Part shown: piece by piece, positions 5,006-64,000 of the stretch
Numbering within the stretch: the stretch's first letter is position 1
Layout: each line of letters starts with the position of its first letter
Virus record (IMG/VR): IMGVR_UViG_3300011008_000002
Length of the DNA: 64,000 nt
Origin: a virus
Taxonomy: Duplodnaviria > Caudoviricetes
Reading direction: 5' to 3' (one strand)
Notes under the pieces: generated by a model
Databases searched by the model: none
What the model was told of the DNA's origin: nothing
What the model saw: only the letters and a program-made list of their open reading frames with translations
Translations under genes and position numbers: made by a program

Positions 5006-5018
5006 AACAAAAAAATAA
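5006..5018 (+). promoter_or_regulatory. Late promoter motif, or U-tract of a minus-strand terminator
   Basis: AACAaaaaaaTAA directly before a structured ORF-free region. Confidence 0.4.
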
Positions 5019-5523: not shown

Positions 5524-5569
5524 ACTAAAATAGCTGCGAAACGGAATTTTGGTTATAATATAAAAAATG

Positions 5570-5594
5570 AAAGAGGGATGATAAATCCCTCTTT
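5570..5594 (-). terminator. Intrinsic terminator
   Basis: AAAGAGGGAT/ATCCCTCTTT hairpin plus T-tract after the 5602 stop. Confidence 0.8.
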
Positions 5595-11356: not shown

Positions 11357-11893
11357 ATGGCATATGCGGAAGAGAAGGATTTAATTCAGAATATCAAAGA
11401 TCTCAGAGATTCTGTTGAACAGATGACTGCCGAGTTTTCTACTGTGCAGCCGTCCATTGATCAGATTTTATCCTTAAAATCACAGTTCGAGGATCTGGCA
11501 AACAGCACCACGGCAGTGATACGGATTTATGAGAACACTTTGGCTGCAAAAAACTCCGAATATACAGACTTACTGAACAATTGTAAGTCTCAATTCAACC
11601 AAGTTACCAGAGAGGTCGAGTCTTTGGTTGCTCTTGGATTGAATTTCAATGAGATTAAAGACAAGATCGAGCAATGTCTTGAACTCAGTGATCAGGTGAA
11701 CTATCTTGTGCAGGACCAGTTCGTCATTATGAAAGAAGGTCACTACATAGATATTCCTAATCGTATTCCTTACAAGCACTATCTGAAGGTTATTGACTCG
11801 TTCGATATATCAGCGGGTGGTGGTTCTGGTGGTGGAGACACCACACATTACATTGTTAGTCCTACCTTAGCGATAAGCTATACCGCAAGGTAA
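11357..11893 (+). CDS. Coiled-coil late/virion protein
   Basis: AAGGAGGT RBS; heptad-like N-terminus. Confidence 0.8.
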   Translation: MAYAEEKDLIQNIKDLRDSVEQMTAEFSTVQPSIDQILSLKSQFEDLANSTTAVIRIYENTLAAKNSEYTDLLNNCKSQFNQVTREVESLVALGLNFNEIKDKIEQCLELSDQVNYLVQDQFVIMKEGHYIDIPNRIPYKHYLKVIDSFDISAGGGSGGGDTTHYIVSPTLAISYTAR

Positions 11894-11926
11894 ACTATAA
11901 AAATAAAAGAAAAGGAGAATAAACAA

Positions 11927-13102
11927 ATGAGCGATTTGAATCAGGTGAGGATACAGGTCCTCAACGCAGAAACTGGCGAAGTTATTGACAGCGTAGATGT
12001 GAAGACTTCTGATGCTGCTGTATATTTGCCGGACGGTTCTACTCTCAGGAGCTGGATTTCCCAGAATGAAGAGACCGTATCTGATATTCAGACGAAGCTT
12101 GCAACGCATCTTGCGAAGGCTCATGTAGATCCTGCGAAGCTTGATGGACTGCTTGCGGGCGTAAACTACAACCGTGAGACGGGTACTTTCACGTTCACGA
12201 AGCATGACGGTACTACCCAGGATGTTGACACCCTTCTTGAGAAGGTTATCGTAAACTTCAAGCTGCATGAGGGTGTGAGTGGTGAGTATACCGAAGTGAG
12301 CGTTCCTACTGGTAACCCCAGTGAGAATGGTTACTATGAGAAGAGCGGCAATGATTACACCGCTTCCGAGGACACCACTGTTGATGGTGAGAAGACCTAC
12401 TATACCAGCGATCTTGGCAAGACCTTCCTTGTTCTTGTGTCTGACGACCAGACTGAGCAGAAGGTTGACATGACCAAGTTCTTCGACGTTTACACTGGCT
12501 CCAATGCCAACGGTATTACCGTTTCGGTAAACAACCAGAAGCAGATCAGCGCGTCCATCAATGACGGCTCCATCGCTTACGATAAGCTCGATACTGCTCT
12601 TAAGGCGAAGGTTGACGCTGAGTACAGCCTTCCTGCGGCTACTACCAGTGCGCTTGGTGGCGTTATTGTTGGTAATGGTATCGCGGTTGCGAACGACGGA
12701 ACGATTTCTGCTGACAACATCAAGAAGGGTGGTGTTGCCGTTTCCCTGAACCTTGATGAGGATGAGAATACCGTTGTTATCAATGTTACGGACAACAATG
12801 CGGCTGTTCAGAACCTTACGGTTGGCGGAACGGCTACGGCTCTGGTTGTGAACCAGACCTTCACTGGTACTCAGGCCGCGAATGCTACAGCTACCTATCA
12901 GTGGTATAAGAAGACTGTCGGCACGGATGCTGCGTTCACGAAGATTACTGGTGCTACCAGTGCGACTCTTCCTGCTGCAAGCATTGATACGTCGGCGGCT
13001 GGTCAGACCATCTACTACTGCGTAGTTGGTGCTACTGGCACGGATGTTGTTGCTGATCCTGCTACTTCCAAGAGGATTACTGTCAACGTTGCGGCTGTGT
13101 AA
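11927..13102 (+). CDS. Virion surface protein with C-terminal Ig-like domain
   Basis: TYQWYK...ITGAT....YYCVV Ig-like motif; YSLPAATTSALGGVIVG.G.....DGTIS fibre motif; strong codon bias suggesting high expression. Confidence 0.8.
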   Translation: MSDLNQVRIQVLNAETGEVIDSVDVKTSDAAVYLPDGSTLRSWISQNEETVSDIQTKLATHLAKAHVDPAKLDGLLAGVNYNRETGTFTFTKHDGTTQDVDTLLEKVIVNFKLHEGVSGEYTEVSVPTGNPSENGYYEKSGNDYTASEDTTVDGEKTYYTSDLGKTFLVLVSDDQTEQKVDMTKFFDVYTGSNANGITVSVNNQKQISASINDGSIAYDKLDTALKAKVDAEYSLPAATTSALGGVIVGNGIAVANDGTISADNIKKGGVAVSLNLDEDENTVVINVTDNNAAVQNLTVGGTATALVVNQTFTGTQAANATATYQWYKKTVGTDAAFTKITGATSATLPAASIDTSAAGQTIYYCVVGATGTDVVADPATSKRITVNVAAV

Positions 13103-13159
13103 TTTATACGTTACATAGCTAAATAGACAGTAATTATGGTTGCAGAGGAGGTGGTATAA

Positions 13160-13600
13160 ATGCCTAGCGTTTACAAAGTTCAGCATGAAGAAGCAAACGG
13201 CGATATTATCTTATACGCTTCATCTGCGGAAATTGTAGGGTATAATTCGTCAAACTCGACGAATTTGGATGCCCAAAATACGCAGGATGCAATCCACGCC
13301 GTTAATGAAAAGGCTGAAGGAAGGGCAAGGGTGTTGACCTTTAATGCAATCATCACAGCTTCAGCCTTTGATGGAACTACGGTTCCATATACACAGAGAA
13401 TAAGTGTTCCAGGTATATTACCTACTGATGCACCTGATGTGTCTCCTGTAATTTCAACCATCGTATCAGAGGGTTTGAAGCAGAGAGAAGCATTCGGATG
13501 TGTGACCTCAATCGAAACAGGGAACGGTGAAATTATCGTACGTTGTTACGAGGAAAAACCCGTTGTTGATGTCGGTATTCAAATGAGAGTATTCAGGTAA
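13160..13600 (+). CDS. Tail-associated hypothetical protein
   Basis: GAGGAGGT RBS; A.NTQDAI and PYTQ.I.V.GI...D.P motifs seen in phage tail proteins. Confidence 0.75.
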   Translation: MPSVYKVQHEEANGDIILYASSAEIVGYNSSNSTNLDAQNTQDAIHAVNEKAEGRARVLTFNAIITASAFDGTTVPYTQRISVPGILPTDAPDVSPVISTIVSEGLKQREAFGCVTSIETGNGEIIVRCYEEKPVVDVGIQMRVFR

Positions 13601-33800: not shown

Positions 33801-34025
33801 TTATAAGAAGTTCATGTCAACTGCTTCCCACAACGAAAACCCTGCTCTGAACTTACCCAACTGTTCAACTAGGTCTTCGTACGAATGGGAAAGTCTCACA
33901 GCCTCAGTCACGATTGATTTATCTTCATTACCATTGAACAGAAGTAACCTATATGGTTCATCACTGTTGGTATTGGAATGAATTATTGTGTAATGCTGTT
34001 CGTCATTGTACTCAACTACCTGCAT
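33801..34025 (-). CDS. Small hypothetical protein (74 aa)
   Basis: Start moved to MQVVEY, preceded by GGAGGG. Confidence 0.65.
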   Translation of the reverse strand: MQVVEYNDEQHYTIIHSNTNSDEPYRLLLFNGNEDKSIVTEAVRLSHSYEDLVEQLGKFRAGFSLWEAVDMNFL

Positions 34026-58770: not shown

Positions 58771-58791
58771 TCTAAATAAGGAGGTGTGAAT

Positions 58792-60036
58792 ATGTCACTT
58801 ACAATGTCGAACCCTTCCATTGTACATACATTCGGTAACGTAGCTTGTGTTGCTGTTGATTATATGGAAAGTTTTTTCGGTCCTGATTTCTTTAATAAGA
58901 TTCATGTAAGTACCAAATTATCACATAGGCAGTTAGATGTATTTCGAGCTAAAACTGGTTTCTGGAAGAATAAAAAGCCTATGTTGGTATTAAGACCTAG
59001 AGTTGATTGGGAAGGTAACGGAAATTGGTTTTATGGTTCTACTATGATGACAAGGTTAGCAAATGGTAGAACCCATATGGAATTTGCTGATAGAGTAAAA
59101 CTAATACACGACCCTGAACATAGACTGGATGTTGATTTCATCTGGAATAGATATAAGATTATCTATGACGTGGTTATTGTATTAGAGACTTATAACCAAC
59201 AAGCAAATATCATGCATGACTTAAGAAATCAACTTGGTATTGAAAACTACTACCCGCTTCAAACCATACTAGAGGCTTATATACCAAAGAGTGTGGTTTA
59301 TTCAATAGCCGATTACCTTCATATAGATAGGAATGATACTGCATCAATACTAGAGTATATGAACACAGTATCAGAAGTTCCAATCACTTATAAGCTTCAT
59401 AAGAGTTCCGGCAATACAGAATTCTTTATGATGTATCCTACAAGAATAGAGGTATTCCCATCAGATTTACAACCAGATGATGGTACCACTAAAGGAATGG
59501 TCACTGACACTTATACTATTGGATTATCTTTATCTATGGAATTCAATAGTGTAGGAGTTTGGTACACGTTCCTGTTTGACAGTGATGATACGTTTAGAAA
59601 AGCCCCTATGGATGAAAATCTGATGAATAGCGAAGATAGGGTAATTCTTATGTCATCAATTCCTCTTGGTTATGATTTAGGTCTTGAGAAAGGATGGAAG
59701 ATAATTGAAAGTCCATTCTATTTTGCTACTCCTGACCCAAAGACAGGGATAGATGAAACCGATATCAGTGAAATACTAAATAAGATTTCTATTAGAAACC
59801 TTATAAATCATCATAAGCAAATGAATATTCCACTGGAATATTTCTTACAGTTTAGAGTATTTCGTGGGAATAAAGAATTACCAAGAGGTATTAAGGGTTT
59901 TGATATAGACCTTGAACAAAAGAAACTGTATACATACAATGCATTCAATCAAGATTCTCATAGGTTATTTGTAATCATCAACACTATGGCGATTAACAAC
60001 ATGGCTACTGAGATTTCAAATTTTGATAAAAAATAA
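58792..60036 (+). CDS. Putative virion structural protein
   Basis: AAGGAGGTG RBS (ATG at 58792); late promoter; beta-rich sequence. Confidence 0.7.
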   Translation: MSLTMSNPSIVHTFGNVACVAVDYMESFFGPDFFNKIHVSTKLSHRQLDVFRAKTGFWKNKKPMLVLRPRVDWEGNGNWFYGSTMMTRLANGRTHMEFADRVKLIHDPEHRLDVDFIWNRYKIIYDVVIVLETYNQQANIMHDLRNQLGIENYYPLQTILEAYIPKSVVYSIADYLHIDRNDTASILEYMNTVSEVPITYKLHKSSGNTEFFMMYPTRIEVFPSDLQPDDGTTKGMVTDTYTIGLSLSMEFNSVGVWYTFLFDSDDTFRKAPMDENLMNSEDRVILMSSIPLGYDLGLEKGWKIIESPFYFATPDPKTGIDETDISEILNKISIRNLINHHKQMNIPLEYFLQFRVFRGNKELPRGIKGFDIDLEQKKLYTYNAFNQDSHRLFVIINTMAINNMATEISNFDKK

Positions 60037-60054
60037 TTTTCGTTTGTATGTAGT

Positions 60055-60067
60055 AACATTGATATAA
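60055..60067 (+). promoter_or_regulatory. Late promoter motif
   Basis: AACAttgataTAA before an ORF-free structured region. Confidence 0.6.
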
Positions 60068-60270
60068 TCGTCTGCGAACTAGGGCATCTTCCAATGTATA
60101 AACGGATAAGAAGATGTCTTTAAATCGACGTTTCGCTAGAGATTACGGATGTCAGAAAAGAAGAGATTGCGTTATAATTGAGGATTCGAAATATGACCTC
60201 TATTCGGGTATGCACTCGGGAGAATAGCAAAAAATGAATTGAATTCGTAATCAACAAACCCTAGCGGAAT
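60066..60270 (+). ncRNA. Candidate ~200 nt multibranched late ncRNA
   Basis: Closing stem tctg/cgga plus ctaggg/ccctag; internal stems 60083-91/60110-18, 60127-32/60148-53, 60165-71/60246-52, 60180-83/60197-200 and 60200-05/60222-27; own promoter and terminator. Confidence 0.65.
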
Positions 60271-60282
60271 AAATATATAGAA

Positions 60283-60316
60283 GACTGAGGAGTAGTCATA
60301 ATACTACTCCTCAGTC
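60283..60316. terminator. Bidirectional terminator hairpin
   Basis: Perfect 14 bp stem between convergent units. Confidence 0.8.
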
Positions 60317-60323
60317 GTTACTG

Positions 60324-60749
60324 TCATAGTTTAGTGCAATCAAAAGAACCGTTTGCGGCTATTTGTTCTTCAAGATAACGCTCAGTATGGTTATCATACT
60401 CTTCATCGAATGTAATGAAGAGTTCATCAACTTCTTTTTGTTTCTTTTCTGTATACTCTCGTTCTTTCTTAAGAGCATACAACATTTCCTCTCTAGCTAC
60501 AACTTCCTTCTTTACGTAACCAAGAATTTTTCGAACTTTTGAAAATCTTGTAGCAGCATAATTCGTGCTCATGGTTTCGATATCGGATATATAACGATTA
60601 TAAATTCCGTTATCGTTCATCTTACTACGAAGTAATCTGAGTTCATCGTCATAATGTTCGAGATATTCCTCTTTCTCATACTTCAGTAGCTGATTGATTT
60701 CCTTGACCAACATCCTTCCCTTGATGGTCATCGAGTTGACCCTCATCAT
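60324..60749 (-). CDS. Hypothetical helical protein
   Basis: Start moved to MMRVNS after AGGAGG. Confidence 0.7.
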   Translation of the reverse strand: MMRVNSMTIKGRMLVKEINQLLKYEKEEYLEHYDDELRLLRSKMNDNGIYNRYISDIETMSTNYAATRFSKVRKILGYVKKEVVAREEMLYALKKEREYTEKKQKEVDELFITFDEEYDNHTERYLEEQIAANGSFDCTKL

Positions 60750-61838
60750 TGCCTCCTGATATCTCAGAAATCTCCACGTTTTCTTCAACAATTTCTCTTA
60801 TTCTATCGGAATTAGACCTGCGAAATTCCCTTAACGGTCCTTTCCAATAAGGCTGAATGAATATCTTCTTTCCCGTTTTATACGTTCTCCAATGACCGAC
60901 GACATACCAAGATCCGCATTTTCTAGTATAACTGCGATTCTCATTGTTGCCATATATCACTTCATCGAGTTTTGTTTCAATATCAGCCATAATTATCTTA
61001 TGTCTGACATATTTAACCCTCCTTGGTACTTCAGATTTGTATTTCTGATCTTGTGCAGTTAAGATTTCTCCTTTCTTTAAGTTTGACCGTTTCTCAATTA
61101 TTTCTTTCGTCACTGGATGCAACAACGCAAGTTGTATACTATACCATGTAGATAGTATCGCAATCGTTATAAGTTCGTGGCAAGATCTATCGTATAAGAA
61201 CACTTCGTTATCTATATCAAATCCTTTATTAGCGATTTTTTAAGCTCCATTAACATACTACTCGACATAGCTTTTGGTTGTCTTTCTGGTAAAATAACTG
61301 TATGCGATGGAGATATCCCAAACGCCTCGCTAAAGGCCAACGGAACCGCTATCATCACAGAGGACGACCTATCAACAAACTTCATATTCATTATCAATAG
61401 ACCAATCACCATTCCGATAAAATCGTTAGTGCTTTTTTCTTCCTTAGCATTTGATACAATCTCATGATAATCATCAAACAGCTTGACCCTGTATGACATA
61501 CCACCAACAGTACCATCACTGGCGGTATTTGTGAACTCGCAATCAGGAAGAGGTACACAACCACCGACCACCATATCTGATGGTATGCATTCTTTATCTT
61601 TGGTCTGTTCTATCCAGAACTTCTCAAGATAATCCACAGTTTCATTTGATGCTTCAACATACTCTGGAGCTTTTTCAGAAAAACATTGATTTGCGATATT
61701 TTTTACGTTGTTCGGGAGTTCATCCGAAAACACAATATCGCAATCACTAAAAGTTCTCATTTGGCTTCTAGTAATAAATTCTGGTCTCCAAACTCTATTG
61801 TTTGGATATTTCGAGAACTTCCTCATTTTGTTACTCAT
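60676..61838 (-). pseudogene. One hypothetical gene split into two ORFs by a frameshift at an A6 run (about 61236-61241)
   Basis: Adding one A at CTT AAA AAA TCG joins ...MELKK to IANKGFDIDNEVFLYDR...WYVVGHWRTYKTGKKIFIQPYWKG. The downstream ORF has no RBS. Confidence 0.6.
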
Positions 61839-61877
61839 AACAAACCTCCTTAGTGTATGGTTGTATAGTTACCAAAT

Positions 61878-61888
61878 TTTAATATATC
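61878..61888 (-). promoter_or_regulatory. Early promoter motif variant
   Basis: Minus strand GATATATTAAA. Confidence 0.5.
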
Positions 61889-61934
61889 AATAAAATCTTC
61901 ATAAACATTATTTTCTCCTAGATGACCGTTTTAG

Positions 61935-61973: not shown

Positions 61974-64000
61974 ATGGATTTGACAATAAAAACTCCGAAA
62001 GAAGAATTGATTGATAAAATTAACGATTTAGAAATACCGGAAGATGTCCTCTATGCAAATAATACATTTAGCCTTACGGCGTTAAATGAGACATTGGAGC
62101 GTCTATCCCTTATCAACTTCTGGAGTTTATACCAAACTCAAAGAGCCAGATTACATATGGAACGATTTGATATCCCATTTAGAGATTTCAAACCAACCTA
62201 TCGTTTATCTGGAGAAAAAACGAGAGAATATTTTCCAAAACGCAATATTGCGTATATAGATTATCAATTCATTCGTGCTGAACTACGTAAGAAATATCGT
62301 AATTCGGATGTTTACAACAAAGCGGTCAATCAGGTTGAGATATCTGAGAACCCAAGTATTTTCCGATATAATCACCTTGTATTCATTAATGGTGATTATA
62401 TCTCTACTACTGAAGTTTATCCTCAGGAAGCAAAGACTGGTATTATTATTGACCTTGAGTCAAATCAAAGTAGACATGGAATTACATATGCTGATTATAC
62501 CAGATGGATGGAAGAAAATCCTACGGTTACAATCATCATAGTTCCAAATTTCAAGGTATCAATGCTTAATACCAATCAGTATATCATTAACCGTGCAAAT
62601 GGTAGTCTTCCGTTTGATAATATTACTGGGTCAGAATACTTTACAGATGAAACTGTTTGCTTCTTAAATTCAGGGGAAGGTCTCAGTAGAAGATTTCTAT
62701 CTGACAAGATTACCATAGATACGGAGTCTCGGGTAATAAACTTTGATAATGATTTGGGAGCTGGTGGAAAGACTTATCACCTTTGCTTCATTACATTTGA
62801 CCATTTGTTTGCTAAGAGATATTTCTCGAATGAGCACCCTTATACGCAGTTATCTGAAGCAAAAATGCCTTGTCCTAAAGAGCATTTTGTATTCCTTTCA
62901 AGGAAGACTGGAATTGGTTCATTCCAATTTGATGGAGATATTTCTGCGGATATGTATTATCCGAATATCTATAAGTTCAACGGATTGGAAGATAATGAAG
63001 AGGGGTTAGCACTTGTATTCCAAGATGAGGATACTGTTACAAAGTCAGAAGAATACATCAATGACCTCAAGAAGTATGAAGAATATATCGCACTCCTTCC
63101 GAGGTTTGAAGACGGTTCGATTGATGATATTATAAAGAATTACCGTCCTTCTACGTTTACATATTCCATTGAGGATTATGAAGGTTCAGTATACGTGCCT
63201 GATACGATGAACTATAAGGTACAAAAACTTCATAAAGCAATCTATAATAATCCTTGGGCTCTTGCCGTATATATGGATATGCTAAATCTTCCGAGTGACA
63301 AATTCTTTCTTGATATGGAGAAAATTGATTTGACTAATCGTATCAGGAGAGATAGTTCGAGGGAAGAAATAGATGCAGGAACTCCTGTAGTCACATTCAA
63401 CGAAGATAGGTACGTATTTGCTATGAACCGTCACTATGTAGAAACAAGAAAGTACGGGTTCAGGATTTTCATTGATGGGTACTTTCAGTTAGATAATACC
63501 TATACAATCTTATCTGGTCCGAATTTCTATTTCATCTATATACCGGTTGATAAGATTAAACCTACTACTATGATTGAAATCGAGAGATATAAACTCTATA
63601 CGATTGAAAAACGTGGTACAGTAGAGTCAATAGATACACCAGTCGTTGAGTTTGATTTCTCAGAAGATAGGCAGATGTTTGGATATTCCAGGGAAATCTA
63701 TGCTGTTGATTTGAATACCCTTTTGTTTATCCCAAAGAATAAGTTGAGGATTGAAGTCCTTTACAAGTTCAATGAGAAATATGATAGGTGGGTAGAAATA
63801 CCTGAGCAAAGGAATATTCCCCTTGAGAATAAGGTTCGAGTATATGTAAAGGACGAAGCTTATGTCGGAAAACAGATAAGAGCAGGTATTCAAAGAACTA
63901 CAGTAATGGCTTCTGGTGATGTCTATCATGAAAATCCAGATGACGATGATAGGTCGTTCTGGTATACAAAAGGTGAAATTAGTAATTTCGGTGGGTATGA
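61974..64000 (+). CDS. Large putative virion structural protein, truncated by the window edge
   Basis: Not in the ORF track because it has no stop in the window. AAGGAGGT RBS; MDLTIKTPKEELIDKIND...LVFING...FRIFIDG... stays open to 64000. Confidence 0.8.
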   Translation, partial: MDLTIKTPKEELIDKINDLEIPEDVLYANNTFSLTALNETLERLSLINFWSLYQTQRARLHMERFDIPFRDFKPTYRLSGEKTREYFPKRNIAYIDYQFIRAELRKKYRNSDVYNKAVNQVEISENPSIFRYNHLVFINGDYISTTEVYPQEAKTGIIIDLESNQSRHGITYADYTRWMEENPTVTIIIVPNFKVSMLNTNQYIINRANGSLPFDNITGSEYFTDETVCFLNSGEGLSRRFLSDKITIDTESRVINFDNDLGAGGKTYHLCFITFDHLFAKRYFSNEHPYTQLSEAKMPCPKEHFVFLSRKTGIGSFQFDGDISADMYYPNIYKFNGLEDNEEGLALVFQDEDTVTKSEEYINDLKKYEEYIALLPRFEDGSIDDIIKNYRPSTFTYSIEDYEGSVYVPDTMNYKVQKLHKAIYNNPWALAVYMDMLNLPSDKFFLDMEKIDLTNRIRRDSSREEIDAGTPVVTFNEDRYVFAMNRHYVETRKYGFRIFIDGYFQLDNTYTILSGPNFYFIYIPVDKIKPTTMIEIERYKLYTIEKRGTVESIDTPVVEFDFSEDRQMFGYSREIYAVDLNTLLFIPKNKLRIEVLYKFNEKYDRWVEIPEQRNIPLENKVRVYVKDEAYVGKQIRAGIQRTTVMASGDVYHENPDDDDRSFWYTKGEISNFGGY

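Follow-up and report, generated by a model that had tools for sequence, protein, structure and literature searches.

A putative folded late RNA in an ORF-less gene cassette of an uncultured gut jumbo phage of the AR9 group

Between a late virion-type gene and a convergent operon, the window (the whole 64,000-nt stretch of phage DNA analysed here) contains a late promoter followed by what appears to be a gene-less derivative of a small late cassette, probably still making a folded RNA. This reading, which was built from sequence comparison, was given a probability of about 0.5. In the proposed model, the phage late RNA polymerase would start near position 60066 and produce an RNA of approximately 205-250 nt, the predicted end of which lies at or near the hairpin at 60283-60316. 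Read-through from the upstream virion gene would also cover the unit. Features of the locus are listed in Table 1.

Table 1. Features of the unit and its neighbours, in window coordinates.
Feature	Position	Strand	Description
Upstream late virion-type gene	58786..60036	+	416 aa from GTG; likely start ATG 58793, giving 410 aa
AR9-type late promoter AACA-N6-TAA, AACATTGATATAA	60055..60067	+	exact consensus match; predicted start A 60066
5' segment	60066..60129	+	now a hairpin of ~10 bp, 60082-60091/60110-60119 (MFE fold)
Closing stem, 5' strands	60130..60155	+	P1 60130-60139 (GTTTCGCTAG); P2 60141-60150 (GATTACGGAT); 4-bp extension 60152-60155
A/G-rich run, then window-specific insert	60156..60195	+	run 60156-60166, unpaired probability 0.83; insert holds second GAGATTGCG copy
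ACCTC box and hairpin P3	60196..60220	+	box 60196-60200; P3 60203-60209/60214-60220
A-run and closing stem, 3' strands	60228..60270	+	A-run 60228-60238; extension 60239-60242; P2 60243-60252 (ATTCGTAATC); linker 60253-60260; P1 60261-60270 (CTAGCGGAAT)
Perfect 14-bp hairpin	60283..60316		common to the unit (+) and the convergent operon (-)
Convergent three-gene operon	60324..61838	-	208/175/155 aa; context, outside the RNA

The window was taken from the minus strand of a 229-kb genome recovered from a gut metagenome and estimated to be 97% complete. Judged by its gene content, the uncultured gut phage belongs, as a distant member, to the AR9 group, whose jumbo phages encode polymerases of their own. 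Strong AGGAGG ribosome sites and a G+C content of 37% point to a Firmicute as the host. This placement is based upon the presence of a homologue of AR9 g251 and of beta- and beta'-like RNA polymerase domains in the genome; Pfam matches above cut-offs comprised two Rpb2-domain-6 (beta-like) and one Rpb1-domain-2 (beta'-like). The protein of 416 aa encoded upstream of the unit has homologues with 22-25% identity in Bacillus phages AR9 and PBS1, Staphylococcus S6-like phages, and Yersinia phiR1-37, its AR9 counterpart being g251. In all, 51 homologues of the protein were identified. AR9 g251 is expressed late, with values of 0.82, 90, and 1246 across three time points (supplement, PMC5312081). 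Even the nearest relatives of the phage are distant, with protein identities of the flanking gene of 72% or less. Elsewhere, the 2-kb segment with the highest G+C content in the window (0.47 vs. about 0.37), at 11867-13186, was found to carry long open frames on both strands, of 439 aa (-) and 391 aa (+).

The promoter at the head of the unit was examined against the mapped starts of AR9, in which 94 late starts follow the consensus AACA-N6-TA/G with the last base as the start (PMC5312081). Promoter consensus and predicted start of the window unit are as in the late units of AR9, and both phages possess their own multisubunit RNA polymerase; the AR9 starts were mapped experimentally, whereas the start in the window is predicted from sequence (PMC5312081). 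Across the phage genome, 29 of the 38 copies of AACA-N6-TAA are intergenic, which corresponds to 0.44 per kb vs. 0.02 per kb in coding sequence, or approximately 20-fold, and the same words at N5 and N7 spacings showed no enrichment between genes. Many copies of the wider motif [A/T]ACA-N6-TAA are located 29-68 nt upstream of starts with a strong ribosome site. CACA variants of the late motif are present at both late genes flanking the unit, including CACAAAAGAGTAA upstream of the ribosome-binding site of the 416-aa gene. Furthermore, the late motif occurs at the same spot, no more than about 50 nt past the upstream stop, in the seven relatives that have a long gap at the locus (L003, L133, L135, L136, L154, L157, and L161); a TACA variant occupies the promoter position in L004, and the motif in L132 is ambiguous. 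The first-pass annotation had called a perfect late promoter at 60055-67, and the consensus match, the specificity for spacing, the intergenic enrichment, and the shared position in seven relatives bear this out: 60055-60067 is, on this evidence, a genuine AR9-type late promoter of the phage, and is predicted to be active.

No credible gene follows the promoter. The gap from the stop of the 416-aa gene (+) to the stop of the convergent gene (-), 60037-60323, spans 287 nt, and its open reading frames are limited to a 37-aa ATG frame (60114-60227, +) and a 45-aa TTG frame (-). A PHROG scan of both frames returned no family match and neither is preceded by a ribosome site, in agreement with the earlier description of the region as ORF-free. 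A small protein encoded by the 37-aa frame or by a micro-ORF is a highly improbable product of the unit. Such a product would be in keeping with the open ATG frame itself and with a GAGGA located 8 nt ahead of a 14-codon frame at 60193. However, the 37-aa frame is without a Shine-Dalgarno sequence and its ATG is inside a stem, it has neither a family match nor similarity to the 77-aa protein of relatives described below, and no micro-ORF is common to the relatives' units.

Searches for known RNA families were likewise negative. Rfam at gathering score yielded no match over the 64 kb; at E up to 10, the best matches in the region were noise and the loci of the seven relatives returned none. ARAGORN detected no tRNA or tmRNA. 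The first-pass annotation had seen by eye no hallmarks of tRNA, tmRNA, SRP RNA, or RNase P and had proposed an Rfam search; that search and ARAGORN agree with it. The region had no blastn match among 50,697 phage records, and two metagenome scans found no relative. The pattern AAAAATGAAT-N(4-12)-TAATCAAC matched viral contigs more than 118 times, all by chance except for two relatives that were already known. Among known structured RNAs, 6S RNA is a rod with a central bubble and phi29 pRNA has an interlocking-loop layout. Both resemble the window unit in being structured, encoded by phage or host, and approximately 170-200 nt long, but neither gave an Rfam match at E up to 10; unlike 6S RNA the unit folds as a closed multi-branch domain, and unlike pRNA it has no interlocking-loop layout.

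Evidence for structure in the unit, considered here without its terminal hairpin, was moderate. The + strand folds at -49.8 kcal/mol, with a z-score of -2.4 (tool; 1 of 200 shuffles) or -2.0 (script), while the minus strand gives -0.4 to -0.5. The earlier claim of a folded RNA is in accord with this difference between strands (-2.0 to -2.4 vs. -0.4). The coding background, determined from 24 random coding windows of the same length in this genome, had a mean z of -1.06 (sd 0.97); 3 of the 24 windows reached -2.29 or below and the tail extended to -3.59. Since the z-score of the unit is within about 1-1.4 sd of this background, the global fold score is unremarkable. What distinguishes the unit is the arrangement of its two outer helices. 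P1 and P2, each with a pairing probability above 0.97, form an interrupted, stacked, and nested closing stem of 20 bp, a total attained in 1 of 500 shuffles. In contrast, 24% of shuffles contained a single long-range helix of 10 bp, and the duplex energy between the halves of the RNA was equalled in 336 of 1000 and is not distinctive; the stacked-helix count alone is. The exposed parts of the unit are A-rich (60156-66, 60228-38, and AACAAACC at 60253-60) and have counterparts in relatives.

Two further structural proposals had been made from the sequence. The first, a pairing of the ends of the unit (tctg..ctaggg with ccctag-cgga), is possible but absent from the MFE fold; this CTAGGG/CCCTAG plus TCTG/CGGA stem competes with P1 for the same 3' segment, and P1 is the one with counterparts in relatives. 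The second was an alternative fold in which CGTAATC (60246-52) would pair with either of two segments. The complementarity is real, to GAGATTACG (60139-47) and, with one G-U, to GAGATTGCG (60163-71), but a conformational switch has no support. A switch between the two GAGATT copies was rejected, as the second copy lies in the window-specific insert, which relatives lack, and such a repeat does not exceed chance expectation: by a rough estimate that was not computed, approximately three chance occurrences of a 9-of-10 direct repeat are expected in a region of this size.

Comparison with relatives places the unit in a wider context. The slot after the g251-like gene is variable: L139, L142, L010, and L011 have a bare terminator, and other relatives have a gene-free stretch of 140-230 nt between a promoter and a terminator. 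In the units of seven relatives, the + strand had z-scores of -2.4 to -4.35, better than the - strand in each, and as a group they were more negative than the coding background. In L003/L006, L154-156, and L157 the slot contains a cassette of late promoter, small ORF, folded non-coding element of approximately 160-200 nt, and hairpin, and L133 is similar. The cassette ORF encodes an acidic protein of 77 aa (70 aa in L157) behind a good ribosome site, and its conservation at 74% and 49% identity marks it as a real gene. The protein, which begins MALLNVEEATK and has no family match, is encoded at 4290-4523 in L003, 1501-1734 in L154, and 369-581 in L157. In AR9, g252, a virion protein gene, follows g251 after 22 nt and no RNA gene is annotated, whereas the window has a gene-free unit in this position. 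AR9 g252 was considered as the counterpart of the relatives' 77-aa ORF and rejected, as tblastn of g252 against the relatives' loci yielded nothing matching the small ORF.

Both forms of the cassette were found in one community: the gut sample holding the phage also holds an L003-like relative, and a second contig diverges into L003 promoter sequence right past the stop codon (window 59959-60031, run X1). The DNA contigs compared with the region came from the phage itself and from this relative, and no RNA run was among the public runs recorded as containing the phage. In L161, the same slot (2010-2150) contains an unrelated, GC-richer folded unit behind AACAATAAATTAA, with an exposed-looking ACUCCUCCCC before the first hairpin.

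Both ends of the window unit resemble this cassette. The 5' part (60066-60129 region) aligned with the promoter, UTR, and ORF start of L003 at a score of 20, which was reached by 4 of 300 shuffles (p about 0.013); within this alignment the GAGG ribosome site is deleted in the window unit and the ATG reads AGG. The 3' part, 60230-60316, aligned with L154 (1 of 200 shuffles, p about 0.005) and with L003 (3 of 200, p about 0.015) over the A-run, the 3' strands of P2 and P1, the linker, and the hairpin, and the middle of the unit could not be aligned by sequence. BLAST of the unit against the relatives' units and five related genomes gave nothing significant. The first-pass annotation had held that an absence of conservation in relatives would count against its RNA; conservation escapes BLAST in the five genomes, but a connection to the relatives' element does emerge from careful local alignment and from comparison of the helices. 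A description of the unit as a pseudogene of the 77-aa protein was rejected at the protein level, since tblastn gave no match and the similarity is confined to DNA over the first ~60 nt.

The folded element is comparable across the relatives as well. P1 has counterparts in relatives (e.g. ATTTCGTTGA/TCAACGGAAT in L154) and pairs in 55 of 60 cells from six sequences, vs. 16-32 with the partner slid, in a register that was set by hand and favours pairing. In the same hand-set register, changes on both sides were seen at 5 of the 10 P1 positions, three of them in the window, and P3 pairs in 38 of 42 cells with compensatory changes at 3 positions. The ACCUC box and P3 recur in L003, L154, L157, and L136, and in a variant form in L133. 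Covariance models built without the window recovered the exact boundaries 60130-60270 at 11.5 bits (E 0.14, 2.5 kb) and 7.8 bits (E 1.1, 4.3 kb), scores that are below those of some chance matches. L133, the left-out control, was the top match in its locus yet reached 13.9 bits (E 0.087), indicating that the models are weak. Neither model (R1, R2) detected the units of L004, L132, L135, L137, or L161, and these are consequently not callable as members.

Taken with the relatives' cassette, the window unit agrees in the slot after the g251-like gene and the promoter motif, in the 5' UTR and ORF start, A-run, 3' stem strands, and hairpin, and in the P1/P2 closing stem and ACCUC plus P3. It differs in having no ORF, in its own insert of approximately 40 nt (60156-60195), and in being without the further inner hairpins of the relatives. 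The unit had been described as a self-contained RNA; the similarity of its ends to L003 and L154 replaces that description with one of an ORF-less derivative of a small late cassette. By this comparison, the window copy would be the most diverged, ORF-less form of an unlisted family. The unit would thus descend from a cassette in which a late promoter precedes the acidic ORF of 77 aa, a folded 3' element, and a hairpin. In the window lineage the folded element would have been retained, and the ribosome site and start codon would have disappeared together with most of the ORF.

The main rival to the preferred reading, considered somewhat unlikely, is that the unit is a non-functional remnant in which the ORF was lost by deletion and the promoter, former 3' UTR, and hairpin persist, with an RNA perhaps made but without function. 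Several observations fit decay: relative to L003, L154, and L157, the window unit has kept neither the ribosome site nor the ATG, and little of the ORF; the slot is hypervariable, with unrelated sequences or the bare terminator in relatives; and the window element is the most diverged copy, not picked out by covariance models and with a fold z-score near background. The pair L157 and L136 shows no extra constraint on the element. L136 is a near twin of L157 (97% identity in the flanking gene) in which the ORF has been deleted so that the element stands directly behind the promoter, and the element is 90.7% identical between the two vs. 93% at neighbouring third codon positions. As this loss is recent and the element is no better conserved than its surroundings, its retention in L136 says little about selection. 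On the other hand, the promoter in the window still has a perfect consensus, and P1 and P2 are intact, with three P1 positions changed on both strands and the pair kept, where neutral decay should have broken the stem. L003 and L154 share 68% identity in the element vs. 54% at the third codon positions of the ORF, a contrast that may be read as a mild sign of constraint on the element. The loss of the ORF in the window appears to be old, because the remnant is barely recognisable; a perfect promoter and an intact, compensated 20-bp stem after such an old loss are the main argument for maintenance of the RNA.

The first-pass annotation had placed a terminator after the folded region, and the 14-bp hairpin is indeed present, but the + strand lacks a U-tract and continues as GTTACTGTCATAG. 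The terminator scan reported the hairpin on the - strand only, with the T-rich tail TTCTATATAT; since the T-rich tail is restricted to that strand, the hairpin looks like the terminator of the convergent operon. Its stem base, GACTG...CAGTC, is common to the hairpins of L003 and L154 as read by eye. Terminators of this phage usually consist of a hairpin and, after it, the near-fixed tail TTCATTTTTTGTAT (e.g. window 5563-5592, 14357, and 37072). They often have a matching A-run opposite, which makes them bidirectional, and 11 copies of the word CAAAAAATGAA were counted genome-wide. The CAAAAAATGAA at 60228-60238 was considered as a promoter and rejected: the word is the complement of the usual terminator tail, and here no strong hairpin stands ahead of it.

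The absence of a + strand U-tract past the hairpin is compatible with a late antisense driver, in which the transcript from 60066 would pass the U-less hairpin and run antisense through 60324-61838, silencing the operon or reaching the late gene at 61974. In AR9, seven late promoters drive antisense RNAs, mostly seen late (PMC5312081), and the convergent operon in the window has an early-type promoter, TTGATATATTAAAA, at about 61877-61896 on the - strand. Promoters of this TATATTAAAA type recur before many genes of the phage and resemble AR9 early promoters. The antisense role is nevertheless quite improbable, since in most relatives a good T-run follows the terminal hairpin of the unit on the + strand (L132, L133, L136, and L004), the late gene at 61974, next on the + strand, comes with a promoter-like CACAATCTTTTAA of its own, and a leader of approximately 220 nt with a conserved shape would be superfluous. 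A second promoter class, ATTTTATTACTATATTAAAA, which heads the convergent operon (61877-61896, -), was observed at 23 sites genome-wide, approximately 30 nt before ribosome sites; these are probably the early promoters, served by the virion polymerase. A homologue search with the 155-aa protein of the operon returned only the protein itself and none outside this phage.

A role in cis was also considered. No terminator was detected between the 416-aa gene and the unit (60055-60316), and the unit thus doubles as the 3' UTR of that gene. It could accordingly be a 3' module that stabilises the upstream virion mRNA and provides insulation against the convergent early operon, with the internal promoter adding no more than extra transcripts; in relatives, too, the element forms a 3' UTR, that of the small ORF, and the hairpin serves both converging units. 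This explanation was considered rather unlikely, as the close relatives L139 and L142 do with a bare terminator right after the gene, and as it leaves the dedicated consensus promoter unexplained in the ORF-less window and in L136.

For the preferred reading, a late cassette derivative with a folded RNA, the element would consist of the P1 and P2 stem, within which lie single-stranded A-rich segments and a small hairpin with ACCUC on its 5' side. The RNA element would be the maintained part and could act as a stable non-coding RNA late in infection, most likely through a protein or RNA partner binding to the exposed A-rich strands. The occurrence of such strands in relatives favours a partner-binding late RNA. 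The ACCUC box resembles an anti-Shine-Dalgarno sequence and is single-stranded in relatives by reading, with an unpaired probability of 0.13 in the window. An anti-Shine-Dalgarno role was rejected after all translation start regions had been scanned, the best mRNA duplex (-15.9 kcal/mol) being equal to that of shuffled sequence (-15.5). A structural or packaging role, which had been suggested earlier, finds nothing in its favour, and the unit is not adjacent to packaging genes. In a more speculative and improbable extension, the folded RNA rather than the small ORF would be the selected payload, and the units would constitute a family of self-acting late RNAs in gut AR9-like jumbo phages. Such an RNA might use its exposed A-rich strands to titrate a host protein, either RNA-binding or involved in defence, as a decoy or sponge; alternatively, it might act in cis, on the phage polymerase, so that late transcription passes the terminator of the inserted early operon.

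To our knowledge, almost none of the small RNAs of jumbo phages with their own polymerases has a known function, and we know of no transcript maps for AR9-like gut phages. Small RNAs have been found in the Pseudomonas jumbo phages 201phi2-1 and phiKZ by ONT-cappable-seq and dRNA-seq (PMC11512511, PMC8244752), including 11 in 201phi2-1, one of which is conserved in position beside a tail gene (PMC11512511). As in the window unit, these RNAs are short units with a terminator close behind the start; some of them are intergenic, and one keeps its position beside a homologous structural gene. Unlike the window unit, they belong to another clade with other promoters, were detected experimentally, and are mostly derived from 5' UTRs. 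The kind, small RNAs of jumbo phages, is therefore already known, and the window unit is a plausible new small late RNA. The locus represents a natural experiment, as the same late cassette is present with and without the small gene. The RNA part has been kept both in the old ORF loss of the window and in the recent one of L136, suggesting that the RNA, and not the protein, is worth testing. If gene-free folded late units converging on bidirectional terminators are functional, they would represent a sizeable unannotated layer of late regulation; if not, they would show a fast turnover of small gene cassettes between conserved structural genes.

Other orphan late promoters were noted in the window. 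Those at 5006, 54329, 54727, and 60055 (all +) oppose the prevailing gene direction and are directed at the terminator of a gene on the minus strand. Convergence of this kind is recurrent and could be by design, e.g. for insulation or antisense control. Four orphan units are near-identical, at window 54727 (+) and at 33927 (+), 86553 (+), and 102984 (-) of the genome (C1). In each, the hairpin TGGGAGGT.CAACTGA..TCAGTAT.CC.TCCCA comes immediately after the late promoter, which is TACAAAAAAGTAA in three of the copies and AACAAAAAAGTAA in the fourth. With no ORF for 400-7000 nt downstream, the four units may represent a small late RNA family.
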